Source: Candidatus Omnitrophota bacterium
GTDB lineage: Bacteria > Omnitrophota > Gorgyraeia > Zapsychrales > Zapsychraceae
Direction of reading: 5' to 3'
Assembly (NCBI GenBank): GCA_020053475.1
Contig: JAGVNC010000099.1
Span: 1-55,334, forward strand
Length of the DNA stretch: 55,334 nt
Shown here piece by piece: positions 7,530-50,350 of the stretch. Numbering within the stretch: the stretch's first letter is position 1; the number at the start of each line of letters is the position of its first letter. Made by a program: the position numbers and the translations under genes. The notes below the pieces were generated by a model. It had not been told where the DNA came from. It saw nothing but the letters and a program-made list of their open reading frames with translations, and ran no database searches.

Positions 7530-7561
7530 ATAATGGGAGGTGATGAACCTCCCATTATTTT
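7530..7561 (+). terminator. Intra-operon stem-loop / intrinsic terminator-like
   Basis: ataatgggaggt-gatga-acctcccattat: perfect 12-bp stem followed by T residues. Confidence 0.6.
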
Positions 7562-7573
7562 AATGGTGGTTAA

Positions 7574-9067: not shown

Positions 9068-9130
9068 TTGACAGACCGGTGAGGAACTGAACCGGCATCG
9101 CTGTAGTAAAAAAAACTATAGGAGTTTGAA

Positions 9131-10641: not shown

Positions 10642-10644
10642 AAT

Positions 10645-11808: not shown

Positions 11809-11866
11809 TTCGTGAAATGAGACATCTTTTTATCTATTAATTCTCTTTTGGCTAAATTTTCACATC

Positions 11867-21311: not shown

Positions 21312-21992
21312 ATGCCTTTATCTCTAGAGTTTAATGATATCGCCCTTTTCAAAAATCTTTCTTTAAAGGAATTGCGGTATTTACAAAAATGTCTGAAAGA
21401 AAGAATTTTAAAGAAGGGGGAAATCCTGTTTGAACAATCGCAGCCCTGCGAGAATATTATTATTGTGAAATCAGGGAGGGTAAAGATTTTCCGTTTGTCT
21501 TCGGGAGGACAAGAGCAAATCCTTGAAGTATTACTGCCAGGGGATACATGTGCCTGTAATCCCGGCAGAGTAGAGTGGGCCTGCTCTTCATGGGCAGAAG
21601 CCCTTAGCGACTGTACAGTGTGGACTCTGGGGCGAAGGCATTATGTTGACATGGTTAAAAATAATCCTAAATTAGCCCATGCTCTTTCCGATATTTTTGC
21701 TAAAAGATTATGTAAATTTTGTGCGCTCATTGAACAAGTTTCTTTAGAAACACCTCAGCGCCGGTTGGTTAAATTTTTGTTGGATATGCTTGATTCACCA
21801 GAATGCCGCGGTCAGAAAGAACTTTGTTTAAGCTTCCCCTTCACTCATGAGGAAATAGCCCAGCGTTTAGGGCTTGTCCGTGAAACTGTTTCCCGGCAGT
21901 TAATGCACCTCAAAAAGTTGAAATTAATTCAAATCGACCGCGATAAAATAACAATTTGTGATCAAAAAGCCCTAGAAAATATCCTCTCTTAA
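21312..21992 (+). CDS. Crp/Fnr family transcriptional regulator
   Basis: cNMP-type domain (VKSGRVKIFR...GQEQILEV) and C-terminal HTH THEEIAQRLGLVRETVSR. Confidence 0.93.
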   Translation: MPLSLEFNDIALFKNLSLKELRYLQKCLKERILKKGEILFEQSQPCENIIIVKSGRVKIFRLSSGGQEQILEVLLPGDTCACNPGRVEWACSSWAEALSDCTVWTLGRRHYVDMVKNNPKLAHALSDIFAKRLCKFCALIEQVSLETPQRRLVKFLLDMLDSPECRGQKELCLSFPFTHEEIAQRLGLVRETVSRQLMHLKKLKLIQIDRDKITICDQKALENILS

Positions 21993-22955: not shown

Positions 22956-24191
22956 ATGACGAGATATTCTCAAAGAATTTTCCAAGCACTATTTTTTTCG
23001 CTGACGTTATTAGCGATAGCGACCTTTTCTTGCGAGGCCTCGGATGGGCCTACAGGGGGAGACTGGGAAGAGCGATTCAAAACCCTCGAGAGCCGTGTCG
23101 GAGAACTTGAGGCTGAAAATAGTGCACTTAAGGACGAGGTCAAAACGTTAAAAATTCAACGCCAGGCACAGGAAGCTCCCATTTCTGGTTCTTCGGATCA
23201 GATTACCACTCTTAAGGAGCGTGTGACCAAAGTTGAGAAAGGATTATCCAAACAAGTACAGGTGGGGACGGGAAGTTTAAAAATTACCGGGCTTCTGCAG
23301 GGATGGTATGTGGTCGATCAGGATGCCAACGACCGCTTTCGTTTGCGCCGTTCTGAAATTAAATTCGCAGGAAAAATCGCCGAAGAACAACCCATCGAGT
23401 ATACCGTTATGATTGATCCAGCCCAACTGACAGAAGATGCATCACGAAAGAGTCCCTTGCAAGATGCTTTCATTACCTTGGGGTACATTCCACATCATAC
23501 CATTGACATTGGTCAGTACAAGGTCGGCCTAGGGGAAGAGGGAACGCGTTCCTCTGCCAAGATTGATACCATCGAGAGAGCTTATATCTCAAGAACGTTT
23601 GGTGACCAGCGGGATATCGGGGTCCGCCTGTCCGGCAAATGGCCGTATGTGGATTATAACGTGGGTGTTTTTAATGGTTCGGGGATGAACCAAGCCGATG
23701 CAAATGATCAAAAAGATATTGCCGGGCGGATGGTTTTTAAACCTTTTAAAGATAGCGAAAAATTAAAAGGTTTGGAAATGGGCGTTTCCGGCTATCATCG
23801 TCCAGCCCATGGAAATACCTTTGCGAAAAAAAGACTTGGGTTTGAATCACGTTATGAATACAAGAAATTCTCCATTAAAGGCGAATACATGAGCGGACAG
23901 GGAACAGCCTCATCAAGCGCCACGACCGAGAACAGGACTTTAGCCAACGGCTGGTATAGCCAACTGGGGTATTATTTTGTTCCCAAACTGCAAGGGGTCT
24001 TAAAATATGAGCAATATGATCCTAATGAAGAGGCCGCGAATGATAGGGCTCAAGAGACCACAGCAGGTTTAAATTATTTTATCGAAAAATACAATGCCAA
24101 ATTGCAGCTCAATTACATTCATAAAGATGAACAAAAAGCAAGCGAAGTGAATAACGACCAGGTTATTGGTGCCATCCAGGTGGCCTTCTAA
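22956..24191 (+). CDS. Outer-membrane porin, OprO/OprP-like, with N-terminal coiled coil
   Basis: Signal peptide, coiled coil, FRLRRSEIKFAG, GQYK, RDIGV, GVFNGSG, terminal IQVAF; strong RBS aggagg. Confidence 0.8.
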   Translation: MTRYSQRIFQALFFSLTLLAIATFSCEASDGPTGGDWEERFKTLESRVGELEAENSALKDEVKTLKIQRQAQEAPISGSSDQITTLKERVTKVEKGLSKQVQVGTGSLKITGLLQGWYVVDQDANDRFRLRRSEIKFAGKIAEEQPIEYTVMIDPAQLTEDASRKSPLQDAFITLGYIPHHTIDIGQYKVGLGEEGTRSSAKIDTIERAYISRTFGDQRDIGVRLSGKWPYVDYNVGVFNGSGMNQADANDQKDIAGRMVFKPFKDSEKLKGLEMGVSGYHRPAHGNTFAKKRLGFESRYEYKKFSIKGEYMSGQGTASSSATTENRTLANGWYSQLGYYFVPKLQGVLKYEQYDPNEEAANDRAQETTAGLNYFIEKYNAKLQLNYIHKDEQKASEVNNDQVIGAIQVAF

Positions 24192-24202
24192 GGAGGTGAC
24201 GA

Positions 24203-25042
24203 ATGGCTACGCCGACTAAATCAGAAACGATGTTTGAGGAGGTTATTGATCAGCAATTGGGACGCCGGTCATTCTTAAAGTTAACAGCGCTGGGCATTGT
24301 CAGCGCCGCGGCAGCGACACTTCCGGCAGAAATAGCGGAAGCCGCTAAAGAAGCTGTGACAAAGCGGAAGTTCCGTTACGGAATGGTGATTGATCTAAGA
24401 CGATGCGTAAACTGCAAGGCCTGCACGATTGCCTGCAAGCTGGAGAATAAAACACCTCCCGGAGTTGAATATAATCCGGTCATTGAAGAGGAGATAGGGG
24501 AGTATCCGTATGTCAAGCGCAACTGGTTTCCCAAACCATGTTTTCATTGTGAGAATCCTCCTTGTACGAATGTCTGCCCTGTAAGCGCTACTTATAAAAG
24601 ACCGGAAGATGGGATTGTGGTTGTTGATTACAAAAAATGTATCGGGTGCCGTTATTGCATCACGGCCTGTCCTTACGGAGCGCGTTATTTTGATTTTGGC
24701 GAGAATTATCCGGCGCAAGAAACGGATTATGGAAAGATCCTTTCGCCGGAATTTAAAGGAGAATATGGTCTGCGCAAAGAAGGCAAGAGCCCTGATGGGA
24801 ATGTCCGTAAATGCACTTTTTGCTTACATCTTCAGGATGAAAAGGGGCATTATAGCCGCCCACCCGCATGTTCTGAAACGTGCATGGCTAAAGCGATTCA
24901 TTTTGGCGATTTCGGTGAGAATTCCGATGGTGGCTGTATTACTCATCAGGATTGTAATTTAAAACAGCTCTTGGTGGCAAGAAGATGGATTCGATTAAAA
25001 GAAGAATTAGGAACTGAACCCAATGTTTATTATCTAATGTGA
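24203..25042 (+). CDS. Tat-exported 4Fe-4S electron-transfer subunit (NrfC/PsrB/ArrB-like)
   Basis: GRRSFL Tat motif and four Cys groups (CVNCKACTIAC, CFHCENPPCTNVCP, CIGCRYCITACP, CTFC...CSETC). Confidence 0.92.
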   Translation: MATPTKSETMFEEVIDQQLGRRSFLKLTALGIVSAAAATLPAEIAEAAKEAVTKRKFRYGMVIDLRRCVNCKACTIACKLENKTPPGVEYNPVIEEEIGEYPYVKRNWFPKPCFHCENPPCTNVCPVSATYKRPEDGIVVVDYKKCIGCRYCITACPYGARYFDFGENYPAQETDYGKILSPEFKGEYGLRKEGKSPDGNVRKCTFCLHLQDEKGHYSRPPACSETCMAKAIHFGDFGENSDGGCITHQDCNLKQLLVARRWIRLKEELGTEPNVYYLM

Positions 25043-25050
25043 GGCGCCAT

Positions 25051-26181
25051 ATGATTAAAAAATTGTTGTGGGGTGTTTGGTTAGTCTTTTTTGGTATTGG
25101 GGCCGTAGGGGTCTGGCAAAGATTAGTCTATGGGCATCACTTCGCAAATTATGGATCGTTTGTGCCCTGGGGATTATGGGTTGCAGCTTATATTTACTTT
25201 GTAGGGCTATCAGCGGGATCATTTCTTCTCTCTTCTTTAATTTATGTGTTTAATGTGAAGCAATTGGAGCCCATAGGGCGATTATCACTTGTTACCGCGA
25301 CAATCACTTTATTTATGGCTTTGCTTTCCATCTGGTTTGATATTGGCCACATGGAACGCTTTTGGTATGTATTTGCCAGCCCCAATTTTCATTCGATGAT
25401 GGCCTGGATGATTTGGCTTTATACAGCGTATTTTATTTTATTGCTCGCAGAACTGTACACCGTCTTTCAAAACCATAGTGAGAAGCAGCAAAGAATTATG
25501 AAAATACTCGGCTCAATAGGAGTTCCTTTGGCTATTGCTTTTCACGGCGGGGTGGGCGCACTTTTTGGCGTTGTCGGTGCAAGAATATATTGGCATTCCT
25601 CGATGTTTCCAATTTTATTTTTAACCGGGGCGCTAACTTCCGGAGGGGCATTATTGTTGGCTATTGTTGCGTGGTTTTGGCCTCACAAAAATGTTCAGCA
25701 TCAACAGCTTGTTCGGTTCCTCGCCCAAATCACTCTAGGTTTATTGTTATTCGATTTACTTTTGGAATGGGCTGAAATTTCTATTCCGCTTTGGGGGGGC
25801 ATGACAGAGCATACAGCCAGCTTAAAACTTATCTTATTTGGCCCTTATTGGTGGGTCTTCTGGATTCTTCACTTATTCATGGGAACTCTAGTCCCGATTA
25901 TCCTTCTTCTTAAAGGACTTAAGAAACCCTATGTAGCAGGTTGGGGCGGGGCATTGATTGCAATCTTGTTTTTGACGGTACGTTTAAATTTGGTTATTCC
26001 GGGGCAAGCCGTTCCTATTCTTTCAGGGATCGAGGAGGCCATTAAAAATCATCGATTAACGACAGCCTACGTACCCAGTCTTCATGAATGGATGGTGTTA
26101 TCATTCATTGTTTGTTTAGGAATACTTGTCTTTAGCCTTGCAAAAAGAAAATTAAACATCTTCCATTTGGAAGCGAGGTGA
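25051..26181 (+). CDS. NrfD/PsrC-family membrane anchor
   Basis: VPWGLWVAAYIYFVGLSAG, DIGHMERF, FHGGVGALFG. Confidence 0.9.
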   Translation: MIKKLLWGVWLVFFGIGAVGVWQRLVYGHHFANYGSFVPWGLWVAAYIYFVGLSAGSFLLSSLIYVFNVKQLEPIGRLSLVTATITLFMALLSIWFDIGHMERFWYVFASPNFHSMMAWMIWLYTAYFILLLAELYTVFQNHSEKQQRIMKILGSIGVPLAIAFHGGVGALFGVVGARIYWHSSMFPILFLTGALTSGGALLLAIVAWFWPHKNVQHQQLVRFLAQITLGLLLFDLLLEWAEISIPLWGGMTEHTASLKLILFGPYWWVFWILHLFMGTLVPIILLLKGLKKPYVAGWGGALIAILFLTVRLNLVIPGQAVPILSGIEEAIKNHRLTTAYVPSLHEWMVLSFIVCLGILVFSLAKRKLNIFHLEAR

Positions 26182-26186
26182 TATCC

Positions 26187-28637
26187 ATGCATCCCATAAA
26201 TCGTCGAGAATTTCTGAAGTTAACTGGTGTTGTCGGAAGCGGTATTTTAGGGGCCGGGGCCTTAAGGCCTCTTAAGGCCATTGCAAAGGAAGAATTGGGG
26301 CGCGGGCCGTACGATAACGGCAAATGGATTCCTTCTTGCTGTCATATGTGCGGAGGAACGACCGGGATTATGTGCCAGGTCGTGGACGGGCGCCTTGTTC
26401 GCATTAAACCGAATAATCATAATCCGGTAGGTTTTACGAATATCTCTGATGATTTCTTCGCCAACGCTGACAAAGAAGGGGCCGTGATGTGTCCTAAGGG
26501 GAATGCGGGAATCATGGCGCTTTATGATCCGGACCGCGTTCGACAACCTTTGCGAAGGACCAATCCGCAGAAAGGGATCGGCATTGATCCTCAGTGGAAA
26601 GTTATTTCGTGGGAAGAGGCTTATTCAGAAATTGTGTCGAAACTTAAAAACCTCCGTGATGCCGGAGAGGCCCATCAGTTACTTTGGTTTTCCGAGGATC
26701 ATTGCTTTACCCATATTCAAGATGATTTCTGTAAATTGTTTGGAACGCCCAATTACAATATGCACTCAAATCTTTGCGATGTTGGGCGGAAGGCCTCTTT
26801 TAAAATTCTCATGGGCGATGAGCGGCCCCTCATCGACGCTATTAATTCTAAATATATGCTGATCTTTGGTTGGAATCCTTTGTCAGCCACCAAGTGGTCT
26901 CATTTACCCAGGATCATTACCAGAGGAGTGGAACGGGGAGCTAAGTTGGTCGTTGTGGATCCGCATCTTTCTTATACCGCATCGAAAGCCCATCAATGGG
27001 TTCCTCTTCGGCCAGGGACAGACGGAGCTCTGGCTTTAGCCATGGCCCATGTCATTCTTCGTGATAATCTTCAAGACCAGGCTTTCATCGATGAATGGGT
27101 GACGGGGTTTACTGAATTCCGCGAATATGTAAAAGATAAAACACCTCAATGGGCGGAAGGGATTACGACGGTCCCAGCCAAAACTATCGAGCAGGTTGCC
27201 CGTGAATTTGCTTCAACAAAACCGGCCTTGGTGGATGTTTGGTCAGGCACACATCATACCAATGGCGTTTATGCAGGCTGGGCCATCGGGAGTCTGGCCG
27301 TAATTACAGGCAATGTTGAAAAGCCAGGGACCCTTGTATTGCCGGATAAGAAAGGTAATAAACATATTGAAGTCGAAGCGGATGAAGCCGCTAAAGTAAC
27401 TTTAAAGCAGCCGCGTTTTGACGGCGGGAAAGACAAATATCCTTATTTCAACAAATCGGGAGTTTATGCCGAGATCATCAATCGTTTGAGCAAAGGGGGC
27501 GGTCCTTACCAGCCAAAGATGGGGATGATTGTTTTTCAAAATCTTCTTATGGCGGTTGTTGGCACAAAGAATGTTGAAACTGCGCTTCGGAAATTTGAGT
27601 TCCTTGTTGTGGTCGATACGATGTTGAGTGAGACAGCAGAATTTGCCGATATTGTGATCCCCGGCACAACTTATCTTGAGCGTTACGATTTGAATAATCA
27701 TTGGGTGACTTGGCCGATCCTTGGGTTACGTCAGCCCGTTGTGAAACCGCTTTTTGGCCAGCCGGCGGAATATGAATTTGTCTGTGAACTTGGCCGACGG
27801 CTTGGTCTGAAAGAAGGGAATGGAGGAGATTTCTTCTGGACAGGGCATATGTCTCATCAGAGGATCGAGGATAAGACAAAATGGTATGAAGAGCTTTTGA
27901 GTAAAGAATTAAAAGAAGGGGAGCCGAAGATCACACTTGAAGAGTTGAAAGCGCTCCCTGGCGCCACATGGGTCAGTAAAAATGGAACAAAATACAATAA
28001 GCATACGGGTGCCATTGCGCCTGAAAAAGTACAGGATGCCTTTACCGAAGGGGCTCTTCTTTTTTCAAAGAAAAAAGACGGATCCAAAGACAAACAGATT
28101 GGTATGCTTAAAGCAGATGGGACAGCTGTTCGCGGCTTCATGACACCTTCCGGCAAATTGGAGTTGTACGCCGCCAAACATACCGGTAAAAAAGATGCCA
28201 ATGGAAAAGAACTTTCTCCCTTGCCTGCCTATGAACCGCGGGAGTGGCAACCGGACGATAAATATCCATTGTATTTGATTAACTGGAAAGAGGCGTCCCA
28301 GACACACTCGCGCACGCAGAATAATGCGTTTTTAGCAGAGATTAAATCCACGGATGGATTGCGAATGAATAAAAAAACAGCCCAGCGACTTGGGATTAGC
28401 CAGCATGATGAAGTATGGGTTGAATCGCCTTACGGAAAAGTAAAAATGAAAATTGAATTAACTGAAGGGATCCATCCTGAAGTGGTCGGGACCCAGCATG
28501 GCTGGGGACACTGGGCCTTGGGGCGCATTGCCAAGGGCCGTGGGGCTCATACCGGGATTTTGGCACCGACAAAACCCTGTGCTCTGTCTGGTCAATCCCT
28601 TAACAAGGAGATTTGTGTGAATGTTACCAAAGCTTGA
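26187..28637 (+). CDS. Tat-exported DMSO-reductase-family molybdopterin oxidoreductase catalytic subunit (ArrA/PsrA-related)
   Basis: NRREFLK Tat motif, CCHMC...MCPKG FS0 region, LYDPDRV, HSNLCD (probable Mo-ligating Cys), RPGTDGALALA, SETAEFADIVIP, THSRTQNN. RBS gaggtg precedes ATG 26187. Confidence 0.9.
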   Translation: MHPINRREFLKLTGVVGSGILGAGALRPLKAIAKEELGRGPYDNGKWIPSCCHMCGGTTGIMCQVVDGRLVRIKPNNHNPVGFTNISDDFFANADKEGAVMCPKGNAGIMALYDPDRVRQPLRRTNPQKGIGIDPQWKVISWEEAYSEIVSKLKNLRDAGEAHQLLWFSEDHCFTHIQDDFCKLFGTPNYNMHSNLCDVGRKASFKILMGDERPLIDAINSKYMLIFGWNPLSATKWSHLPRIITRGVERGAKLVVVDPHLSYTASKAHQWVPLRPGTDGALALAMAHVILRDNLQDQAFIDEWVTGFTEFREYVKDKTPQWAEGITTVPAKTIEQVAREFASTKPALVDVWSGTHHTNGVYAGWAIGSLAVITGNVEKPGTLVLPDKKGNKHIEVEADEAAKVTLKQPRFDGGKDKYPYFNKSGVYAEIINRLSKGGGPYQPKMGMIVFQNLLMAVVGTKNVETALRKFEFLVVVDTMLSETAEFADIVIPGTTYLERYDLNNHWVTWPILGLRQPVVKPLFGQPAEYEFVCELGRRLGLKEGNGGDFFWTGHMSHQRIEDKTKWYEELLSKELKEGEPKITLEELKALPGATWVSKNGTKYNKHTGAIAPEKVQDAFTEGALLFSKKKDGSKDKQIGMLKADGTAVRGFMTPSGKLELYAAKHTGKKDANGKELSPLPAYEPREWQPDDKYPLYLINWKEASQTHSRTQNNAFLAEIKSTDGLRMNKKTAQRLGISQHDEVWVESPYGKVKMKIELTEGIHPEVVGTQHGWGHWALGRIAKGRGAHTGILAPTKPCALSGQSLNKEICVNVTKA

Positions 28638-29313
28638 AAATCAGGAGAATCAAGCACTGTTAAACCAGGAAATCGCCGGGGGGTATTTCTTGTTTGCCAG
28701 TCTTTTTTATCAGCCCCCCAGGCAGGATTTTTTAAAGATGATCATCGAGGCCCAACTTTTAACCCAAGCCAGGAATATTCATCATCAAGGTATTGAGCCA
28801 CTGGCTAAAAGTATTGAGGACCCCCGGTGGCTTCATCAAGAAGAAAAAATTGCGGTTGAATTCGCTTCTTTGTTTGTGGTCCCTGGGCAAGGCATGATAA
28901 CCCCTTACGAATCTTATTATTGCGATACACTCATCATTGATCATTCAACGGCGTGTTCTCCCTATTTTCAATCCCAAGAAGGGTCTGTGGGTTTAAAAGG
29001 GTTTTTGGGAGGAAATTCTAACCAGTCTGTTCAGGCCCTTTATAAAAAATTTGGATTTGAGATCAATCCCGCCTTTTTTGATTTACCCGATCATGTCTCC
29101 GCCGAGTTGGAATTTATTGGCAAACTTTACGAATCGGGATATTATGCGGAAGCAGAAAATTTCCATCAAAAACATTTGGGTAGATGGGTCGGATTGTTTT
29201 TAAATAAACTTTCTGGGCAGGCAAAGTCAAGTTTTTACAGAGCTGTCGCCGAAAGTCTCCAAGGATTTTTGTCGATGTATGATGGAAGGAGGGACGGAAA
29301 ATGTTTGGACTAG
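28621..29313 (+). CDS. TorD/DmsD family maturation chaperone
   Basis: PYESYY and PDHVSAELEFIG motifs, HLGRWV. Confidence 0.88.
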   Translation: MLPKLENQENQALLNQEIAGGYFLFASLFYQPPRQDFLKMIIEAQLLTQARNIHHQGIEPLAKSIEDPRWLHQEEKIAVEFASLFVVPGQGMITPYESYYCDTLIIDHSTACSPYFQSQEGSVGLKGFLGGNSNQSVQALYKKFGFEINPAFFDLPDHVSAELEFIGKLYESGYYAEAENFHQKHLGRWVGLFLNKLSGQAKSSFYRAVAESLQGFLSMYDGRRDGKCLD

Positions 29314-29465
29314 GAATGCCAGAGTTGATTGTTATATTTTTCATCATTTTGATTTTGTTTGGGGGTAGTCGAGTCGTAGATATTGCCAAGGGTTTGGGCA
29401 AGTCGATCAAGGAATTCAAGAATGCAGTATCCGACAAAGAAAACTCCTCTCAAACCAAGACATAA
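29301..29465 (+). CDS. tatA: Twin-arginine translocase TatA (54 aa, missed by the ORF track)
   Basis: MFGLGMPELIVIFFIILILFGGSRVVDIAKGLGKSIKEFK; RBS aggagg. Confidence 0.92.
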   Translation: MFGLGMPELIVIFFIILILFGGSRVVDIAKGLGKSIKEFKNAVSDKENSSQTKT

Positions 29466-29473
29466 CGTATAAC

Positions 29474-29624
29474 GCTCCGAGTCCTATGGCCTACGTTCGC
29501 TCGCGTCGTGAGTGAATATGGTTTATGGACCGATTCGGGGTATCTCGCGGGAAACCGAATACCCTCCTCGTAACTGCTGATAAAAGCAGGTTATCCGATT
29601 TACTCGGGTAGTTTGGAAAGGGGC
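29474..29624 (+). ncRNA. Moco (molybdenum cofactor) riboswitch-like leader
   Basis: gctccgag...ggcctacg...tatggtt...gggtat..cgg-gaaa-ccg..ccctcc...ttggaaaggggc follows the landmark order of the Moco RNA motif. The closing stem gctcc/ggggc overlaps the tatC RBS. Confidence 0.75.
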
Positions 29625-29626
29625 CT

Positions 29627-30343
29627 ATGGGAATAGACGATAAACAGATTTCAATTGGCGCGCATTTAGACGAATTCCGCCGAAGGATTATCGTTGTCGC
29701 TATTTTTTTTATAATTCTTGCCAGCATATCGTTTTATTTTATTGAAGATATTTTACGCCTTCTCAAGCTCCCTGCCGGTTCGCATCTGGGCACACTTTCC
29801 GTCTTCAGCCCGACAGCCGCTATCCTGGCTTTTATTAAAATTGGGTTCTTTGCCGGTTTCATCCTCACAACCCCCGTCCTTTTGTATGAAATTTGGATGT
29901 TTATCCTTCCGGCGCTTGAACGAAGGCACGCGCGTTACGGTCTATTATTTGTGTTATCGGGTGTCGTTTTGTTTATCGCCGGTATTTTATTCAGTTTTTA
30001 TTTTTTGGTCCCGGCATCCTTGAAATTTTTGTTAAATATCGGTAAAGGGGAATTGCAATTCATTATCTCTTTGGATTCGTATATCTCTTTTGTACTCCTT
30101 TTTTTGGTGGCCGGAGGGGTGGTATTTGAGATGCCGGCGATGGTCTTTATATTGGCCAAACTGGGAATTTTAACAGCACAAAAAATGATCCGCTCCTGGA
30201 AGCTGGCCATTGTCGTTATTGTCACCGTAGCCGCGCTTTTGACGCCGACACCCGATATTGTTAATATGGCCTTAATGTCTTTGCCGATGTTTCTGCTTTA
30301 TATTGTATCAATTGGAGTGGCGGGATTGGCACAAAGGCGGTGA
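29627..30343 (+). CDS. tatC: Twin-arginine translocase TatC
   Basis: HLDEFRRR, LYEIWMFILPAL, FEMP, LTPTPD. Confidence 0.95.
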   Translation: MGIDDKQISIGAHLDEFRRRIIVVAIFFIILASISFYFIEDILRLLKLPAGSHLGTLSVFSPTAAILAFIKIGFFAGFILTTPVLLYEIWMFILPALERRHARYGLLFVLSGVVLFIAGILFSFYFLVPASLKFLLNIGKGELQFIISLDSYISFVLLFLVAGGVVFEMPAMVFILAKLGILTAQKMIRSWKLAIVVIVTVAALLTPTPDIVNMALMSLPMFLLYIVSIGVAGLAQRR

Positions 30344-30397
30344 ATCGTTCGCTAATAAAAGCGATTTTATAATACATACTTAAAAATAGGAGGGAAC

Positions 30398-30724
30398 ATG
30401 GAATCGGTATCCGCACCACCGAAGATGTACGAAACGTTTAACAAGCGTTATCCCAAACTCAAACAGGCCTATGAATTAATTGCCCAAGCCGGGAAAGACG
30501 GCCCGTTGGATGAACGGACAGCAAGGCTCATTAAACTCGGGATAGTGCTGGGGGCCATGCGGGAAGGGGCCGTGCATGCGAATGTGCGTAAGGCCTTAAC
30601 CTTAGGGATCTCAAAAGAAGAAATTGAGCAGGTTGTATGTTTAGCGGCTCGAACACTGGGGCTCCCGTCAACGGTGGCTGTTTATTCGTGGATCCAAGAT
30701 GTCCTTAAGAAGGGACAAAAATAG
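30398..30724 (+). CDS. Carboxymuconolactone decarboxylase (CMD/AhpD-like) family protein
   Basis: GPLDERTARLIKLG...EGAVHANVRKAL.GISKEEI. Confidence 0.8.
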   Translation: MESVSAPPKMYETFNKRYPKLKQAYELIAQAGKDGPLDERTARLIKLGIVLGAMREGAVHANVRKALTLGISKEEIEQVVCLAARTLGLPSTVAVYSWIQDVLKKGQK

Positions 30725-30757
30725 GAATCACGCTATTCAATTTTTCAAGAAATCACG

Positions 30758-31717
30758 ATGAATAACAATTGTTCAACATCTTGTATAGTCGATAATAACG
30801 GGCGTGTCATGCATAAACTACGCGTCCAATTGACGGATGCCTGTAATTTCAGGTGTTTTTATTGCATGCCTCCTGACGCCCGCTTCCTTTCTTCGTTAGA
30901 GCGTCTTCGCGCCTCGGAATTAATTGGGATATGTTCGGCATTAGTGGATTTGGGGATTGATGAGATAAGGCTTTCCGGGGGTGAACCAACGATACGCAAA
31001 GACTTTGATGAAATCGTCCGTGGCTTGTCTGATCTGCCATTAAAGAAACTGGGAGTCACAACCAATGGATTTTGTCTCGAGGAGAAGCTGTCGGTTCTGA
31101 AGGATACGCGCTGTCAGCACATCAATGTGAGCCTTGACAGCTTAAAGGAAGAACGATTCCAGGCCATAACTAAGGCCAATCATTTTAAAAATGTTTACCG
31201 GGGGATTCTTTCAGCCCAAGCGATGGGATTTCATCTTAAAGTGAATGTTGTCCTCATGCGGGGAGTCAATGATGACGAAATTCTCGATTTCTTGGAATTC
31301 TCAAGGAGACATCATATTGAAGTGAGGTTTCTGGAATTGATGAAAATCGGCTGTGCCCGGCTGAACCATGAACGTCATTTTATCCCCGCAAAAGAAATCA
31401 TCGGAAAAATAGAAGAACGCCATTCATTGACCCCGCTTTCTGTGAACATTGATTCGACGGCGTTTAATTTTGTTACCGATCATGGTGCTAAAATCGGTTT
31501 CATTGCTTCAGAATCACAGCCGTTTTGCGGATTTTGTTCGCGGCTTCGTTTAACCGCAAGTGGGATTTTAAGATCCTGTTTGATGTCAGAAAGAGGGATT
31601 AGTTTGAGGGGAAAGGACAGGTCACAGTATCTCGAAATTTTAAAAACTGTAATAGCCATGAAGCCGATGGATCGCCTGGAAAAAATCGGCCAGCCTATGT
31701 ATCAAATTGGAGGATAA
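30758..31717 (+). CDS. moaA: GTP 3',8-cyclase
   Basis: CNFRCFYC radical SAM motif, SGGEP, FCGFCSRLRL...SCL, C-terminal IGG. Confidence 0.93.
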   Translation: MNNNCSTSCIVDNNGRVMHKLRVQLTDACNFRCFYCMPPDARFLSSLERLRASELIGICSALVDLGIDEIRLSGGEPTIRKDFDEIVRGLSDLPLKKLGVTTNGFCLEEKLSVLKDTRCQHINVSLDSLKEERFQAITKANHFKNVYRGILSAQAMGFHLKVNVVLMRGVNDDEILDFLEFSRRHHIEVRFLELMKIGCARLNHERHFIPAKEIIGKIEERHSLTPLSVNIDSTAFNFVTDHGAKIGFIASESQPFCGFCSRLRLTASGILRSCLMSERGISLRGKDRSQYLEILKTVIAMKPMDRLEKIGQPMYQIGG

Positions 31718-31990
31718 ATGGATAAACAATTAACTGATGATAAAATCAATGGGGCAGTGTTGGTGATATCAATTTCCGAAAGCCGGGGTATCAAAAAACG
31801 AAATGTCGAATTCGCAGAATTAAGGGAGGATTTTGGGATTGTCAATGACGCCCATGCAGGCAAATGGCACAGACAGATTAGTCTTCTTGCCATAGAGCCT
31901 ATGCAGAAGATTAAAGAGAAGGGCTTGAATGTCAAGTTCGGGGATTTTGCCGAGAATATTTTCCCGCGTATTAAAGGGTGGAACAATTAA
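31718..31990 (+). pseudogene. Truncated MOSC-domain protein (N-terminal half)
   Basis: ISESRGIKK, DAHAGKWHRQISLL, GDFAENI followed by an early stop. Confidence 0.7.
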
Positions 31991-32026
31991 ACCACTAAAT
32001 CAGCCGTAGTTTTTCAGGATCATAAA

Positions 32027-32524
32027 ATGTTGGATAAAAAGAATCTCCCCTATATAGTATCAATCAACATATCTTCGGGTGGAGTCCCCAAATTGCCCAT
32101 TGATTCTATTTATGTGTCATGTTCTGGCCTGAAAGGAGATGGACATAACCATGCCAAACATTATGATCCTATTCAGGCGGTTTGTCTTCAGGATGTCGAA
32201 CAACTGGAAGGGCTTAACCTTAAAGGGTATTCTCTTGTCCCCGGGGCAACGGGAGAAAATCTCACCGTAAAAAATCTTCATGTCAATAAACTTCCCTTAA
32301 AAGCGGTTCTGAAATTTTCCGGTGGCGTTGTTGTAGAGATATCAAAAGTTCGCAAGCCTTGTTACGTAATGGATGCTATTCATCCTCGGTTAAAAGAAGA
32401 CACCGTTGGCTGTCATGGGATGTATGCCAGGGTGATTCAGGAAGGCATGTTGACTTCCGGAGAAATGATTGACGTTATTCTTCCCTCGTTATCAAATGAG
32501 CTAATTAAATCGAGCGCATTATGA
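32027..32524 (+). CDS. MOSC-domain protein (YiiM-like)
   Basis: SINISSGGVPKLP, GLKGD, PGATGENLT, RKPC, GMYARVIQEG. Confidence 0.88.
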   Translation: MLDKKNLPYIVSINISSGGVPKLPIDSIYVSCSGLKGDGHNHAKHYDPIQAVCLQDVEQLEGLNLKGYSLVPGATGENLTVKNLHVNKLPLKAVLKFSGGVVVEISKVRKPCYVMDAIHPRLKEDTVGCHGMYARVIQEGMLTSGEMIDVILPSLSNELIKSSAL

Positions 32525-32609
32525 CACCCCACCGCTAACCATCACTGGTTATTTCTAAGTCGAAAAAATTTTTAATCGATGCCGTTTTATTTAACCCACA
32601 AATGGATTA

Positions 32610-32656
32610 TTGACAAAAAAATATACGTCTGTTAATCTATATAACAAATTTGTTAT
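32610..32656 (+). promoter_or_regulatory. ars promoter and ArsR operator
   Basis: TTGACA-17-TAATCT with TG extension, then the perfect palindrome ataacaaatttgttat at 32641-32656. Confidence 0.7.
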
Positions 32657-33001
32657 GTGAATATGCTTGATAAGACTGAAAAGTTATTTAAGATTTTTGC
32701 TGATAAGAATCGTTTGAGGATATTCAATCTCCTTCAACAGCGGAAAATGTGTGTCTGCGAAATCGCCTTTGTGTTGCAAGTGACTCAGCCCAGCATTTCA
32801 CGGCATTTAAGGAAGATGAAGGAATCTGGATTAGTCGGAGATGAGCAGGACGGTTTCTGGACAAACTATTTCTTAAAGAATTCTTCGGGAGAAAACAATA
32901 TTGTTTTTTGGATTAAATCCTTCTTGAAGGGCGACAATGTCCTCAAAGCGGATATGAATCGATTGAAAAAGGTGGATCGGACAAAACTATGTTGTAGGTA
33001 A
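32657..33001 (+). CDS. arsR: ArsR/SmtB metalloregulator
   Basis: ADKNRLRI, MCVCEI, QPSISRHL, C-terminal CC. Confidence 0.92.
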   Translation: MNMLDKTEKLFKIFADKNRLRIFNLLQQRKMCVCEIAFVLQVTQPSISRHLRKMKESGLVGDEQDGFWTNYFLKNSSGENNIVFWIKSFLKGDNVLKADMNRLKKVDRTKLCCR

Positions 33002-33016
33002 ATTTTTTTAACGAAA

Positions 33017-33040
33017 TTACATAACAAGGCAGTTATGTAA
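33017..33040. promoter_or_regulatory. Second ArsR-like operator downstream of arsR
   Basis: ttacataac-aaggca-gttatgtaa, with the same ataac/gttat half-sites as 32641-32656. Confidence 0.6.
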
Positions 33041-33056
33041 ATTAAGGAGGTTGAGC

Positions 33057-33209
33057 ATGGCTCAAAAAAATGGAGTAAAACAAGAAAAGAAGAGAGGATT
33101 CTTGAGTGGGTTGATGGAAAAGTTGGATAAAAAGATGGAGGAGAAGGCGCAAAAATCATCCTGCTGTGGCGGCGGCTCTGGCCAAAAGAAAGGTTCGTCA
33201 TGCTGTTAA
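33057..33209 (+). CDS. 50-aa Lys-rich protein with two CC pairs (missed by the ORF track)
   Basis: RBS aaggagg; [50 protein letters not shown]. Confidence 0.8.
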   Translation: MAQKNGVKQEKKRGFLSGLMEKLDKKMEEKAQKSSCCGGGSGQKKGSSCC

Positions 33210-34159
33210 AATTTGCGGACTGACTGACGTACGGGTTGTTTGGCTTATCGTCTGAAACAAGGTTTGGGGCATCTGTTAATTTTTTTGTCTATGATTCCAT
33301 CAAGATTCTTCTGCTTCTTTTTGTCCTGATTTTTGTTATTGGCGTATTAAGAACATTCCTGCCTCAACAAAAAATAAAACAGTGGATGGGCAAAAGAGGG
33401 GCGGCAGGGAACTTTTATGCCGCTCTTTTTGGAGCCGTCACGCCGTTTTGTTCGTGCTCTTCGATTCCGATCTTTCTTGGTTTCTTGGAGGCGGGTATTC
33501 CTTTGGGCGTAACATTTTCCTTCCTGATCACTTCCCCATTAATTAATGAGTATCTTGTCATTCTGATGTTGGGGTTCTTCGGTTGGAAGATTACACTTCT
33601 GTATGTTGTTAGCGGAGTATTAATTGGAGTTGTCTCGGGATTAATTCTCGGACGAATGAACTTGGATCAGTATCTTGTGGCTGATCTTATTGAGAAAAGA
33701 GGAAATGATATCAAGGAAGAGTTGTTTCCTGCATTTACCGGCCGTCTTAAATTCGGCTGGGATGAAGCCGTTTCAATAGCAAAGAAAATCTGGCTGTGGG
33801 TTTTAGTCGGTGTCGGAATCGGGGCGGCTATCCATAATTATATTCCGCAAGAAATGATTCAAAAAATCATCAGCAAGACTGGTATTTTTTCCGTTCCGAT
33901 AGCTACGATTTTGGGTGTGCCGATGTATGGAAGCTGTGCTGCCATTGTTCCTATTGCCGTAGTGTTGTTTCAAAAAGGGATTCCTCTCGGTACGGCGTTG
34001 GCTTTTATGATGGCCGTCGCGGCGTTAAGTCTGCCAGAAGCGATTATGCTTCGCCGGGCTATGCGCTTACAGTTAATTTTTATTTTCTTTGGCATCACAA
34101 CGTTGGCGATCATTGTGACGGGTTATTTATTTAATTTTCTTCAGAATATTCTTATTTAA
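33200..34159 (+). CDS. ArsP/DUF318-family permease with an in-frame TGA at codon 8
   Basis: [10 protein letters not shown] and ALSLPE motifs. ATG 33200 is in frame and reads MLLKFAD*LTYGLFG. Confidence 0.85.
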
Positions 34160-34209
34160 TGGAGGACGTAACCTCTATCTCTTCTTCAATCTCTAAAATA
34201 GGAGTGAGC

Positions 34210-35268
34210 ATGGCCGATTCTATTACAAAGAAATTATCTTTTCTGGACAGATTCCTGACGTTGTGGATTCTTTCGGCCATGGCCGTCGGAGTGGGGGCGG
34301 GATATTTTGTCCCTGGGATAACCCAGCTTTGGAATAAATTCCAAGTGGGCGCGACCAATATTCCGATTGCCATCGGGCTTATCCTGATGATGTATCCGCC
34401 GCTTGCCAAAGTAAAGTATGAAGAGATCGGCAAGATTTTTAAGAATAAAAAACTTCTCACGCTCTCTCTAGTGCAAAATTGGATCATTGGGCCGGTCGTT
34501 ATGACGGCACTGGCCATCATGTTTTTACGTGGATATCCGGAGTATATGATTGGTGTAATTTTGGTTGGTCTGGCGCGGTGCATTGCCATGGTCATTGTCT
34601 GGAACGATCTCTCAGATGGCGACCGGGAACTGGCGGCCGGACTTGTAGCGTTCAATGCGGTTTTTCAAGTTCTGTTTTATGCGCCGTATATTTACCTTTT
34701 CATCACGGTTCTTTTGAATATCTTAGGAATTGCGAAGGGACTTAACATTCACATTTCCATGGCGGAATCAGCAAAAACGGTTTTGATCTATCTCGGCATT
34801 CCATTCTTCGCAGGTGTTGTGAGTCGGTTCACGCTAATTAGAATGAAGGGGCGTGAGTGGTTTGACAATGTTTACATTCCACGGATTAGCCCAGTCACAT
34901 TGGTTGCGCTACTTTTTACGATATTCGTTATGTTTTCTCTTAAGGGCGAGGATATCGTCCGTTTACCATTGGATGTTGTTCGTATTGCGGTTCCCCTGAC
35001 GGTCTATTTTATCGTCATGTGGTTCGTGACCTATTGGTTCTCCAAGAAGCTTAAGTCAAATCACGCCGAGGCAACGGCGGTGTCGTTCACGGCGGCCAGC
35101 AATGATTTCGAGCTGGCGATTGCGGTGGCGGTTGCTATTTTTGGCATCAACTCCATGCAGGCTTTCGCAACCGTTATCGGGCCGCTGATTGAAGTGCCGG
35201 TGATGCTGTTGCTGGTCAATGTGGCCCGGATGTTTGAGAAAAAGGCTAACTTAAAGAAATGCTGTTAG
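34210..35268 (+). CDS. acr3: Acr3 arsenite/antimonite efflux transporter
   Basis: [47 protein letters not shown]; RBS ggag before ATG 34210. Confidence 0.95.
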
Positions 35269-35278
35269 GGGAAAGGGT

Positions 35279-35692
35279 ATGTTAAAGAAAAAAGTTTTGA
35301 TCCTTTGTACGGGAAATTCCTGCCGTTCGCAAATGGCCGAGGGTCTCTTGCGGCATTTCGGGGGGAAGCAGTTTGAAGTGTTCAGCGCCGGGACTAAACC
35401 ATCCCAGGTCAATCCGATCGCGATACGGGTGATGAAAGAAATCAGGATCGATATTTCCGGGCACCGCTCAAAACATGTAGATGAGTTTAAAGGACAGAAA
35501 TTCGATGATGTGATTACCGTATGCGATAACGCCAAAGAGTCCTGTCCAATCTTCCCGGGTGTGAAGCCGATGCACTGGCCTTTTCCTGATCCTCCTCATG
35601 GGCAGGGAGAGTCGGAAGTCATTCTCCATGAGTTTCGTACGGTCAGAGATATGATTTCTGAAAAGTTTAGAGATTTTGCCAAAAGTTATTAA
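35279..35692 (+). CDS. arsC: Arsenate reductase, LMW-PTP (thioredoxin-coupled) type
   Basis: CTGNSCRSQMAE, VITVCDNAKESCP, HWPFPDP. Confidence 0.92.
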   Translation: MLKKKVLILCTGNSCRSQMAEGLLRHFGGKQFEVFSAGTKPSQVNPIAIRVMKEIRIDISGHRSKHVDEFKGQKFDDVITVCDNAKESCPIFPGVKPMHWPFPDPPHGQGESEVILHEFRTVRDMISEKFRDFAKSY

Positions 35693-35707
35693 AATTCGAC
35701 TTTCCCA

Positions 35708-35911
35708 ATGACTCGTAAATTAAAATCAATCATTAAGTGTCCCTATTGTGGTTTTGAAAAAGAAGAGACCATACCCACTGATTCCTGCCAGTTTTTCTAT
35801 CGGTGCAGTCATTGCGGGGTAAGGTTGAGGCCCAAAGAAGGGGATTGTTGTGTTTTCTGCTCTTACGGCACGATTAAATGCCCTCCGAAACAAAATGAAA
35901 AGTGCTATTAA
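35708..35911 (+). CDS. GDCCVxC-domain small Cys-rich protein
   Basis: CPYCG...C...CSHCG...PKEGDCCVFCSYG..KCPP. Confidence 0.85.
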   Translation: MTRKLKSIIKCPYCGFEKEETIPTDSCQFFYRCSHCGVRLRPKEGDCCVFCSYGTIKCPPKQNEKCY

Positions 35912-36048: not shown

Positions 36049-37104
36049 CTATTCTTTCAATGATTTAATGTACAGCATTTTTCCATAATCGTCCAGCGCC
36101 TTAACGTAGTTTCCCCTCTCGAATAGCTCTGGATTCGGGCAAGATTTTTGGCTCATCGAGCCTTTCATTTGGCTGACCGATTGATATTCGTTTTCAATCA
36201 TCCAATCCTTCATTTTCTCTAAGATTTCGCTGATGCGGCTTATGCCGTTTTTCAAAAGGGTAGAGCAAAGCATCGTTGCATCCGCCCCCACCATCAACAA
36301 TTTTAGAACATCTTCATGGGTGTGAACGCCGCTGGTTGCAGATAAACTGCATTTGATACGGCCATGCAAAATCGCAATCCAGCGTAAGGGAAGGCGCATC
36401 GCTTGGGGCGTGCTTAAAAGAACGTTGGGAGTAACTTCTAGGTTGGCCAGATCGATGTCGGGTTGATAGAACCGGTTAAAGAGAACCAAGCCATCAGCTC
36501 CAGTTTCTTCTAGCCGTTTGGCCATATTCGCCATGTTGCTAAAGAAGGGAGACAGTTTGATCGCCACCGGAATCGATATACTGGACTTTACTGAATGCAA
36601 TATATCAATATACTTTTGTTCAACATCGCTACCGGGAACATGGGGATCCGTCGGGATAAAATAGATGTTGAGCTCAAGCGCATCGGCTCCGGCATTTTCA
36701 ATTTTTTTCGCATATTTGGTCCAGCCTCCTAAAGAGTACCCGTTGATACTTCCGATAATGGGCACCTTAATTTCTTTTTTAAGTTTTTCAATATGGTTGA
36801 GGTACTCATCCGGGCCAAGGATAAACTGCGATGGTTCCGGGAAATAGGTCAAAGCTTCCGGATAGCTATCGGTCCCGCGGGTAAGATGATCGTGCAGGGT
36901 ATGCGTTTCATGAATGATTTGTTCTTCAAAGAGTGAAAACAAAACAATCGCACTGATGCCGGCTTCTTCAAGTTTGCGGGCATTACTCAATGTGTAGGAA
37001 AGAGGGGAGGCGGAAGCGATCAGAGGATTTTTAAGAGTCATCCCTAAATATTCAGTGGTAAGATCGGGGGACGTTTTGCTATGGGGTGTTTTCTGTTTTG
37101 GCAT
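36049..37104 (-). CDS. Dihydroorotate dehydrogenase-like flavoprotein
   Basis: YLGMTLKNPLIASASP, SLFEEQI, ADALELN, KLSPFF, LFNRFYQPD; overlaps the end of PFOR. Confidence 0.88.
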   Translation of the reverse strand: MPKQKTPHSKTSPDLTTEYLGMTLKNPLIASASPLSYTLSNARKLEEAGISAIVLFSLFEEQIIHETHTLHDHLTRGTDSYPEALTYFPEPSQFILGPDEYLNHIEKLKKEIKVPIIGSINGYSLGGWTKYAKKIENAGADALELNIYFIPTDPHVPGSDVEQKYIDILHSVKSSISIPVAIKLSPFFSNMANMAKRLEETGADGLVLFNRFYQPDIDLANLEVTPNVLLSTPQAMRLPLRWIAILHGRIKCSLSATSGVHTHEDVLKLLMVGADATMLCSTLLKNGISRISEILEKMKDWMIENEYQSVSQMKGSMSQKSCPNPELFERGNYVKALDDYGKMLYIKSLKE

Positions 37105-45623: not shown

Positions 45624-45637
45624 AAAAGAGAAAATCA

Positions 45638-46558
45638 ATGGGGATTCAGATTTTATTACACATCGGCATCGTGATGATTTTATCTCCCTTGCTGTTGGGG
45701 ATCATCGGAAAGACAAAGGCTTTTTTTGCCGGGCGCTGGGGCCCGCCATTGTTACAGCCTTATTATGATATTGGGAAATTATTTCAAAAGGGGAATGTTT
45801 ACAGCATCACAACAACGTGGATTTTTCAGGCCGCGCCGATTGTTTGCCTGGCAGTGGTCTTGGTTTCCTCTTTTTTTATTCCTTTGGGAGGATTGAAGGC
45901 TCCTATTCAATTTTGGGGAGATATTATCCTCTTTGCCTATCTTTACGGGTTAGCCAGGTTCTTGATGATGATCGCCGCGCTTGATACGGGATCAAGTTTC
46001 GAAGGCATGGGCGCAAGCCGGGAAGCGGCCTTTTCGTGCTTAGCGGAGGTTGTGTTATTTTTAGATTTTATTATCCTGGCGCTATTGTCTAAAAAGTTCG
46101 TTTTATCAGAAATCATCGAGGGGAATATCTTATCGTCGTGGCCGTTATTTGGGCCGGTGCTTCTTTTGGTCGGGGCAAGTTATTTCTTAGTTTTGTTAGT
46201 AGAGAATGCCCGGATTCCTATCGATGATCCGGCAATACATTTAGAGCTGACGATGATTCATGAGGTGATGGCCCTGGATCACAGCGGATGGGATTTGGCT
46301 TATATTTACTATGGGGGTGCGATTAAGTTATTTGTTTTGGGAGGGCTATTTGTCAATATTCTGATCCCGTACCACAGTTTATCTTCCGTCATGCAGACAG
46401 TGATGTTCTCCGGAGGAATGATTATGTTGGCGCTGACGATAGGGATTGTGGAATCTTGCATGGCACGATTGCGATTAAACCGGATTCCGCTGCTTTTGAT
46501 CAGCGCTTTTGTTTTGGCTTTGGTCGGAGGGATCGTTGTTTTAGTCAAAGGGGTGTAA
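45638..46558 (+). CDS. hyfC: Ehr/hydrogenase-4 NuoH-like subunit (HyfC-like)
   Basis: GPPLLQPYYD, DTGSSFEGMGASRE, ENARIPIDDP, HLELTMIHE. Confidence 0.88.
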   Translation: MGIQILLHIGIVMILSPLLLGIIGKTKAFFAGRWGPPLLQPYYDIGKLFQKGNVYSITTTWIFQAAPIVCLAVVLVSSFFIPLGGLKAPIQFWGDIILFAYLYGLARFLMMIAALDTGSSFEGMGASREAAFSCLAEVVLFLDFIILALLSKKFVLSEIIEGNILSSWPLFGPVLLLVGASYFLVLLVENARIPIDDPAIHLELTMIHEVMALDHSGWDLAYIYYGGAIKLFVLGGLFVNILIPYHSLSSVMQTVMFSGGMIMLALTIGIVESCMARLRLNRIPLLLISAFVLALVGGIVVLVKGV

Positions 46559-46563
46559 TCACC

Positions 46564-47193: not shown

Positions 47194-47197
47194 AGGA

Positions 47198-48640: not shown

Positions 48641-48641
48641 C

Positions 48642-50345: not shown

Positions 50346-50350
50346 CATTT

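Follow-up and report, generated by a model that had tools for sequence, protein, structure and literature searches.

The 55,334-nucleotide stretch of DNA analysed here (the window) comes from a Candidatus Omnitrophota bacterium (assembly GCA_020053475.1, contig JAGVNC010000099.1, C35 in our numbering) whose genome of 2.03 Mb is 96% complete. It encodes a three-subunit molybdoenzyme, the catalytic subunit of which, P0001, is the sole PF00384 protein of the genome and belongs to a discrete, uncharacterised family within the Psr/Phs/Ttr/Arr/Arx superclade. An initial annotation of the DNA had described a candidate island for the respiration of metalloid oxyanions, built around a molybdenum subunit that is neither ArrA nor ArxA and was taken for a member of a related clade or a new oxyanion reductase. 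Scores against NCBIfam models, active-site motifs and phylogeny all agree that the subunit is neither ArrA nor ArxA. Its substrate is read more tentatively: the enzyme may be a quinol-linked periplasmic reductase for an oxyanion of the As(V)/Sb(V) type, a reading that we favour at a little short of an even chance.

An uncharacterised family of molybdoenzymes

The enzyme has the make-up of a dimethyl sulfoxide (DMSO) reductase-type complex iron–sulfur molybdoenzyme (CISM) carrying Mo or W on a bis(pyranopterin guanine dinucleotide) (bisPGD) cofactor. The catalytic subunit (A) has Molybdopterin, Molydop_binding and Fe4S4 domains and a twin-arginine translocation (Tat) signal, and it is accompanied by a four-cluster ferredoxin (B) and an NrfD-type membrane anchor (C). 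Against the NCBIfam models P0001 stays below every cut-off, scoring 379.9 bits for PhsA (cut-off 694), 267.9 for ArrA (NF041714, cut-off 1600) and 103.9 for TtrA (cut-off 1750). When the ArrA model was run against the whole genome, only the P0001 gene was matched, at 155 bits. Among solved structures the best match is Thermus PsrA (2vpw, 246 bits), and Shewanella ArrA scores 216 bits.

A search of 5.8 billion proteins returned at least 120 relatives, those listed being 57–90% identical to P0001. All of the listed relatives derive from metagenomes or metagenome-assembled genomes (MAGs) of Omnitrophota, Elusimicrobia, Planctomycetes, Latescibacteria, NC10, Nitrospira and others, and their labels read only ‘molybdopterin-dependent oxidoreductase’ or, in JGI annotations, ‘thiosulfate/polysulfide reductase chain A’. 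In an exhaustive search of representative sequences, full-length bit scores run from 1048 down to 493 (42% identity) and the next match lies at 367; the family is therefore sharply bounded. A profile search with divergent members again recovered almost only MAG proteins, Carboxydocella sp. JDF658 being the one cultured holder seen. A protein atlas yielded generic molybdopterin clusters only, and no account of the family turned up in the literature that was searched. Within the phylum the distribution is sparse. In an even sample of 400 other genomes, ten contain homologues at E<=1e-80, nine of which are family members, and none of the 14 genomes from the same taxonomic family has a match. The module is thus a patchy accessory trait.

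In a FastTree phylogeny of 171 sequences the family comprises 39 rows, united with 100% support on a stem of 0.51, and in IQ-TREE phylogenies of 58 and 59 sequences it comprises 22 rows, also with 100% support. The Arr/Arx group of the IQ-TREE analyses (13 rows, 100%) holds the ArxA of Sulfuricella and the representatives that bear the ArrA motif RGRY, and it excludes the family. The group of Salmonella PhsA (100%) is likewise separate, Proteus TtrA lies on another branch, and the sister of the family is a single representative, P0267 (91–97% support). References for these trees were PhsA from a Salmonella plasmid (RefSeq annotation), TtrA from Proteus (2039 bits by hidden Markov model (HMM)), ArxA from the plasmid cluster described in PMC6549141, and the RGRY-bearing representatives. 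None of the 20 scanned representatives reaches the NCBIfam cut-off for ArrA or PhsA, the best score with the ArrA model being 787 bits, so that PhsA, TtrA and ArxA are the only certified references; the trees were built without AnrA, SreA, Thermus PsrA, Wolinella PsrA, SrrA, an NCBIfam-certified ArrA or the enzymes of Melioribacter.

Two subclades can be distinguished. Members of the first are at least 52% identical to P0001 and have their genes in the order B-C-A-TorD, to which a porin is added in Omnitrophota loci; C is missing from L031, L035, L080 and L081. Members of the second, found mainly in Nitrospirota, are 42–44% identical, and here a small multihaem cytochrome is followed by A, B, TorD and an FmdE/ModE-type regulator. 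The related loci were fetched by peptide patterns that included the signature loop described below, which may bias the set of relatives obtained.

Both of the motifs quoted in the initial annotation are present in P0001. The first, FGTPNYNMHSNLCD, occupies residues 188–201 and, in a HMMER alignment with the ArrA of Shewanella sp. ANA-3 (6cz7), runs parallel to the corresponding ArrA segment. The H-S-x-x-C...K of P0001 lies opposite the H-S-x-x-C...K of ArrA, such that His196, Ser197, Cys200 and Lys205 align with ArrA residues 189, 190, 193 and 198. The second, WFSEDH, occupies residues 170–175, and its S-E stands opposite the R-Y of RGRY. In PMC13685797, RGRY (ArrA 163–166; also (R/K)GRY) is given as the loop of ArrA and GRGWG as that of ArxA, and positions 189, 193, 198 and 210 are listed as conserved active-site positions common to Arr and Arx. 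Position 210, a Tyr in ArrA, is opposite Arg216, which is conserved across the family; together with Arg204 it makes up two extra basic residues, both conserved. The family keeps the Mo ligand Cys200 within H-S/A-N-L-C-D-x-x-R-K. Its loop, W-F-S-E-D-H, is two residues shorter than that of ArrA and, apart from occasional T/A/G/C and H-to-A variants, is retained in both subclades.

The N-terminal iron–sulfur cluster, FS0, is also distinctive. Its motif in P0001 is C55-x2-C58-x3-T62...C105, with Thr62 in the third ligand position, and across the family it reads C-x2-C-x3-(T/S/C), in contrast to C-x2-C-x3-C in all other clades aligned. Asp occupies this position in the sister representative P0267 and in an enzyme of Azoarcus sp. 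KH32C, and an insertion of 20–30 residues precedes the fourth Cys. Such a ligand set suggests that the FS0 of the family is a [3Fe-4S] or an O-ligated cluster.

Two divergent representatives of the family, P0124 and P0125 (the latter from Methanosarcinaceae MAGs), have neither the Mo-ligand Cys nor the S-E-D-H loop. They may be non-catalytic, as QrcB is.

The operon and its ars neighbours

Every gene named in the initial annotation was found by open reading frame (ORF) calling, all on the plus strand between 22956 and 35692. The interval had been drawn to 35911, a point some 220 bases past arsC and inside an unrelated minus-strand ORF. The genes run as follows, with a regulator ahead of them.

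21312..21992, plus strand: Crp/FNR-family regulator upstream of the operon; homologues beside the operon in the related loci L001 and L014
22956..24191, plus strand: OprO/OprP-type outer-membrane porin of 411 aa, assigned via homologues; signal peptide, N-terminal coiled coil and C-terminal Phe
24203..25042, plus strand: B subunit, Tat-exported NrfC/PsrB-type ferredoxin with four Cys groups (16 Cys); Fer4_11 8e-20, Tat motif RRSFLK
25039..26181, plus strand: C subunit, NrfD-type integral membrane quinone-site anchor with about ten hydrophobic segments; PF03916 3.6e-38, hydropathy scan
26178..28637, plus strand: A subunit P0001 of 819 aa, Tat-exported Mo/W-bisPGD catalytic subunit; PF00384 3e-34, PF01568, PF04879, Tat motif RREFLK
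28621..29313, plus strand: TorD/NarJ-family maturation chaperone; PF02613 7.6e-19, follows A in 17 loci
29301..29465, plus strand: TatA; PF02416 1.9e-17
29627..30343, plus strand: TatC, an extra copy (second tatC on contig C15); PF00902 2.9e-56
30398..30724, plus strand: small CMD/AhpD-like protein without CxxC; PF02627 2.6e-7, homologues beside A/TorD in L029, L035 and L040
30758..31717, plus strand: MoaA, an extra copy (second moaA on contig C19); Radical_SAM and Mob_synth_C
31718..31990, plus strand: truncated MOSC-like ORF of 90 aa, a probable remnant; first half of the MOSC part of NF011069 only
32027..32524, plus strand: full MOSC-domain gene; PF03473 6.8e-11, 61% identical to the MOSC gene of L029
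32657..33001, plus strand: ArsR-family repressor, 132 bp after MOSC; PF01022 1.9e-17
33236..34159, plus strand: ArsP_1-family permease; PF03773 1.9e-69
34159..35268, plus strand: Acr3-type (SBF family) arsenite/antimonite efflux carrier; PF01758 3.1e-58
35279..35692, plus strand: thioredoxin-type (low-molecular-weight protein tyrosine phosphatase-like, LMW-PTP) cytoplasmic arsenate reductase ArsC; PF01451 3.9e-21, TIGR02691 132.8 bits, below the cut-off of 174.3

The Cys groups of the B subunit lie at residues 68–78, 113–125, 146–156 and 204–227. Its best NCBIfam matches, all below cut-off, are DsrO (176 bits), TtrB (154), NrfC (152) and ArrB (134), and it is 39.5% identical to the ArxB of Sulfuricella as against 34% to PhsB. 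The C subunit is 27.7% identical to ArxC over 358 aa, and PhsC gives no match. The porin itself matches no Pfam family at E<=0.001; PF07396 (Porin_O_P) is found in 107 of its 120 listed homologues, including some that are 89–91% identical, and several of these are named ‘phosphate-selective porin’ by JGI. Porin homologues adjoin the operon in L003, L006, L029, L030, L031, L054, L080 and L081. That the module has porin, export and cofactor genes of its own, as the initial annotation held, is borne out by the related Omnitrophota loci, around whose operons the porin, Tat and molybdenum cofactor genes recur. We propose that the extra TatA/TatC, TorD, MoaA and MOSC proteins make it self-sufficient for export and cofactor supply. 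The two MOSC genes of the window come from different lineages, the fragment matching those of L003, L004 and L039 in their N-terminal half at 56% identity.

Downstream of these lies an ars resistance operon with the expected parts: a repressor (ArsR), an As(III) efflux carrier and a cytoplasmic ArsC. The gap ahead of arsR suggests that it probably starts a separate operon. Over 350 aa the Acr3 protein shares 31% identity with the protein that RefSeq annotates as ACR3 in Azoarcus KH32C. Between arsR and arsP an ORF of 52 aa (33051–33209, plus strand) ends in two vicinal Cys pairs; neither the fetched loci nor the genome yielded a homologue. The ORF may have arisen by chance, or it may encode a small peptide that binds As(III)/Sb(III).

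The initial annotation had staked its reading on two outcomes, the position of the enzyme relative to characterised PsrA/PhsA and the conservation of its linkage to ars genes. On the former the reading survives, for the family does not nest with the characterised PhsA. The latter went the other way, as ars genes are absent from all seven of the nearest loci (at least 77% identity, with at least 4 kb past A: L001, L002, L003, L029, L030, L080 and L081). L001 has the flanking pyruvate:ferredoxin oxidoreductase (PFOR) too, and other genes fill the stretch held here by the Tat, cofactor and ars genes. Synteny is found further afield: ars genes occur in the flanks of five of the 45 other family loci (L009, L012, L015, L036 and L050), in at least three other arrangements.

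A possible second link to metalloids is provided by periplasmic binding proteins of the PF12974 type (X), which are encoded in 12 of the 45 family loci and in none of 18 control loci, usually together with a histidine kinase and a sigma-54 or LuxR-type regulator. Counted together, ars genes and/or an X sensor are present in 15 of the 45 family loci, as against 0 of 18 controls. The controls are loci around unrelated Mo enzymes that were obtained as by-catch of the same scans; one family locus, L034, duplicates L004. The X proteins reach 41% identity with ArxX and 38.7% with an annotated AioX, compared with 28–32% to PhnD of the transporter type. In a tree of such proteins, 10 of 11 family X proteins fall in a clade with AioX and ArxX (94/97 support), apart from the binding proteins of ATP-binding cassette (ABC) transporters. 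From these identities and this placement X can be considered an oxyanion sensor related to arsenic sensors, with its ligand left unspecified; related arsenic sensors are treated in PMC5908839.

In the window itself the neighbouring regulator is of the Crp/FNR family, and its position upstream suggests that it possibly controls the operon. No FNR box was matched upstream of the porin gene, and the window as a whole has nine one-mismatch sites against 4.8 expected. The regulator carries a Cys triad, C79-x-C81...C91, inside its nucleotide-binding domain, and on this basis may be a redox or metalloid sensor. A hemerythrin is also encoded upstream of the operon.

Substrate and direction of the reaction

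Five considerations favour a metalloid substrate: the porin, phosphate-type by its homologues; the ArrA-type residues that have been kept; the likeness of subunits B and C to their Arx counterparts; the excess of ars genes and of AioX/ArxX-related sensors across the family; and the precedent of Melioribacter described below. The enzyme would work on the same principle as PsrABC, ArrABC and ArxABC, in which four clusters wire a quinone site in the anchor to a Mo site in the periplasm. In the proposed scheme, a phosphate-like oxyanion, most likely As(V) and possibly Sb(V), would enter through the OprO/P-type porin. Quinol would be oxidised at the NrfD subunit, and the electrons would travel along the four clusters of the NrfC-like subunit, then by way of the unusual FS0, to the Cys200-ligated Mo-bisPGD, where the oxyanion would be reduced. 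ArsR would respond to any toxic trivalent product leaking into the cell, Acr3 and ArsP would export that product, and As(V) that had been taken up would be handled by ArsC.

The comparison with characterised systems is informative on both sides. Like ArrAB(C) of Shewanella sp. ANA-3, the system has a Tat-exported, Cys-ligated Mo-bisPGD subunit with an FS0 cluster and a partner with four [4Fe-4S] clusters, and some Arr systems share the NrfD anchor and the TorD chaperone with the Omnitrophota operon. It also resembles Arr in the His, Ser, Cys and Lys at ArrA positions 189, 190, 193 and 198 and in having relatives with sensors of the X-S-R type and ars genes nearby. Unlike Arr, its gene order is B-C-A rather than (C)AB, it falls outside the Arr/Arx clade and the third FS0 Cys is replaced by Thr. 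With the Arx systems of Sulfuricella denitrificans pSCD (L066) and Alkalilimnicola ehrlichii it has in common the NrfD anchor, TorD and an adjacent moaA, and family regulators, like the X proteins, approach their Arx counterparts (up to 42% identity to ArxR). However, the A subunits are only about 28–34% identical to ArxA, and in pieces only, there is no ArxB2, the order is B-C-A rather than arxB2ABCD, and the clade is a different one; the ArxA of Sulfuricella shows YGRGWG, which the window protein does not.

The initial annotation had named the proposed antimonate reductase AnrA as an example of the related clade. In PMC12183865 and PMC13284237, AnrA of Desulfuribacillus stibiiarsenatis and Geobacter sp. 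SVR is described as a respiratory Sb(V) reductase of the DMSO reductase family, distinct from ArrA. Neither organism is among the named matches listed in the homologue searches. Melioribacter roseus offers a precedent. According to PMC5492636, this organism respires arsenate without Arr, and two non-Arr CISM enzymes are induced on arsenate: a ‘TtrA’ (MROS_1076), encoded beside an ArrTSR sensor and arsRPCB, and a ‘PsrA/PhsA’ (MROS_1774). The locus resembles family neighbourhoods in its sensor set and its arsR-arsP-arsC-arsB genes, a likeness of gene neighbourhood in which the function on the Melioribacter side is known from transcription only. A further uncharacterised enzyme, that of the Azoarcus sp. 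KH32C plasmid (the ‘Unk’ type of Duval et al. 2008; L089), shares the B-C-A-TorD order, a divergent X-S-R sensor and an adjacent ars operon. It differs in belonging to another clade (with P0166, P0165, P0174 and P0142; 100%), in the Asp at the third FS0 Cys position and in being about 31% identical to P0001. On that plasmid (pAZKH, 1–16700) a binding-protein/kinase/sigma-54 set and genes for ACR3, arsA, arsD, arsC and arsR stand directly alongside the Mo enzyme, and the cultured Azoarcus sp. KH32C is a tractable organism for arsenic-linked Unk enzymes. The Sb(III) oxidase NaoABC was considered as a relative and rejected, being NapA-like and unrelated to the family.

Several observations count against reduction of As(V) or Sb(V). 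The best HMM match (PhsA) and the best structural match (Thermus PsrA) are both sulfur enzymes, ahead of the ArrA matches of 268 and 216 bits, the family is not sister to Arr/Arx, and the ArrA and ArxA substrate loops RGRY and GRGWG are missing, a shorter acidic S-E-D-H standing in their place. Besides the lack of ars genes in the seven nearest loci, 40 of the 45 family loci are without them; the controls, drawn from other taxa, are imperfect, and because related loci are kin the counts overstate independence. Instead of nesting in AioX/ArxX, the family X proteins group separately together with a sensor-type protein of Bacillus, which at 37.8% identity is almost as near to them, and binding proteins of this fold also sense tetrathionate, a weak TtrS match being seen on X. 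An X sensor was looked for in the Omnitrophota genome and none was found, and a second ars cluster lies elsewhere in it (contig C40), with an Acr3 that is 82% identical; for these two reasons the local adjacency of ars genes may be recent or coincidental.

One alternative, which we consider unlikely, is that the enzyme reduces a sulfur compound (polysulfide, thiosulfate, tetrathionate or elemental sulfur) in the manner of PsrABC, PhsABC, TtrBCA or SreABC, with the ars genes as neighbours by chance or through island assembly. PsrABC of Thermus and PhsABC of Salmonella (L061) provide not only the best sequence matches but also an equal subunit logic, and the label that JGI gives to relatives is that of a sulfur enzyme. 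TtrBCA of Proteus mirabilis (L068) has the B-C-A order, which is the ttr order also in PMC2500031, and the binding-protein-type sensors and LuxR-type regulators of L007, L013 and L039 resemble TtrSR. The second subclade occurs in Nitrospirota/Dissulfurispiraceae MAGs, and members of the superclade from Methanoperedens have been annotated as SreABC and cluster with Aquifex SreA (PMC7327174). Nevertheless, the PhsA score of 380 bits falls below its cut-off and that for TtrA far below its own, the family stands outside the clades of both Salmonella PhsA and Proteus TtrA, and P0001 has a Glu at the position of PsrA His145. Identity to Psr/Phs is about 28%, their gene order is A-B-C, PhsC is an anchor of another kind, and TtrA exceeds P0001 in length by about 200 aa. 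By its homologues the porin is phosphate-selective, and among the 25 commonest families of the 148 neighbouring proteins no sulfurtransferase or rhodanese family has two or more members. A sulfur substrate would also leave the enrichment of ars genes and AioX/ArxX-related sensors unaccounted for.

The reaction could instead run in the oxidising direction. The enzyme would then be an As(III)/Sb(III) oxidase of Arx-like character, anaerobic or microaerobic, supplying the quinone pool and, from there, a haem-copper oxidase or the cytochrome network. This direction keeps a place in the discussion because the genome encodes a haem-copper oxidase of the COX1 type, and with it a Rieske/cytochrome b complex and many cytochromes c. 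Residues E173, D174 and H175 would suit neutral As(OH)3 or Sb(OH)3, and AioA likewise uses Glu and His; the loss of the third FS0 Cys is reminiscent of the non-standard FeS cluster of AioA. For subunits B and C the nearest NCBIfam models are DsrO/DsrP and QrcC/D, whereas BLAST puts ArxB/ArxC first, and the X proteins are as near to the arsenite sensors ArxX and AioX as to anything else. The absence of the ArxA loop argues against it, as do the many anaerobes among the hosts, the adjacent PFOR and complex-I-like donor module, and a neighbouring regulator that is of the Crp/FNR type rather than an arsenite sensor. Arx is reported in PMC13685797 to pair with ubiquinone, and MqnA/D, like cytochrome bd, was not found in the genome. 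On balance an oxidase is very unlikely. Clearly unlikely, too, is a substrate of another kind, be it selenite, tellurite, tellurate or some oxyanion or hydroxo-species not yet considered, with the ars genes as a general companion of metalloid stress. The unique pocket signature, the separate clade formed by the family sensors, the weak match of X to a ‘putative selenate binding protein’ (TIGR04553) and the want of any known characterised family member would fit it; nothing positive points to Se or Te, and no Se- or Te-specific genes were seen in the flanks.

Returning to reduction of As(V) or Sb(V), a broader proposal can be made with less assurance, and we would put it well short of probable: the family could be a third, unrecognised type of respiratory As/Sb oxidoreductase, spread by gene transfer through many uncultured phyla of groundwater and sediment. 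Its hallmarks would be the W-F-S-E-D-H loop, the extra Arg at ArrA position 210 and an FS0 without the third Cys, in B-C-A, cytochrome-A-B or anchor-less forms, with a porin in Omnitrophota. Microbial reduction of As(V) drives the release of arsenic into groundwater, and field surveys count arrA, arxA and aioA. If the proposal is correct, an As or Sb enzyme family is invisible to such surveys, the list of organisms held responsible would change to take in Omnitrophota, Nitrospirota, Planctomycetota, Chloroflexota and others, and arsenate respirers without Arr would be accounted for. Should the substrate prove to be a sulfur compound, a common database label would be corrected and a new clade with an unusual FeS motif defined. 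The family makes the question directly testable, having a clear sequence signature for probes, a compact operon and, in relatives, a sensor protein with a measurable ligand.

Electron supply and other features of the window

The window encodes at least six multihaem cytochromes, along with cytochrome c biogenesis genes. A respiratory block at 4003–14621 (plus strand) contains a 421-aa multihaem cytochrome, a Rieske protein (5279–5749) and a cytochrome b (5756–6916), followed by cytochrome c554-like and NapC/NirT-like proteins and two further multihaem cytochromes, one of them fused to a b561-like domain. It also includes a second NrfC/NrfD pair (9874–10641 and 10645–11808) without a Mo subunit. 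Judged by its gene content, the block may be an electron conduit from quinone to the periplasm or to the cell exterior.

On the other side of the operon, a complex-I-like module lies beside PFOR (43644–51106, plus strand, and 37079–40726, minus strand). It comprises NuoL/H/M-like proteins, a fused NuoC-D and NuoB, and no NuoEFG were seen in the window; this composition suggests a ferredoxin-driven quinone reductase or a complex of the Mbh/Ech type. PFOR, the complex-I-like module, the Rieske/cytochrome b pair and the multihaem cytochromes could together feed the quinone pool. The COX1 gene is split over two contig ends (C8, 54172–54837, and C103, 32–715), and its presence means that the organism is not a strict fermenter.

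A search of the window for tRNA genes found none, the GC profile does not set the island apart from the rest of the window, and a scan for promoters and terminators gave counts not above those in shuffled sequence. Among sequencing runs, no RNA run is listed with the locus, and six DNA runs are, with word shares of at most 0.10. At the end of the window (51237–55077, plus strand) lie genes with Bro-N and Fic/DOC domains, which may be of mobile-element or phage origin.

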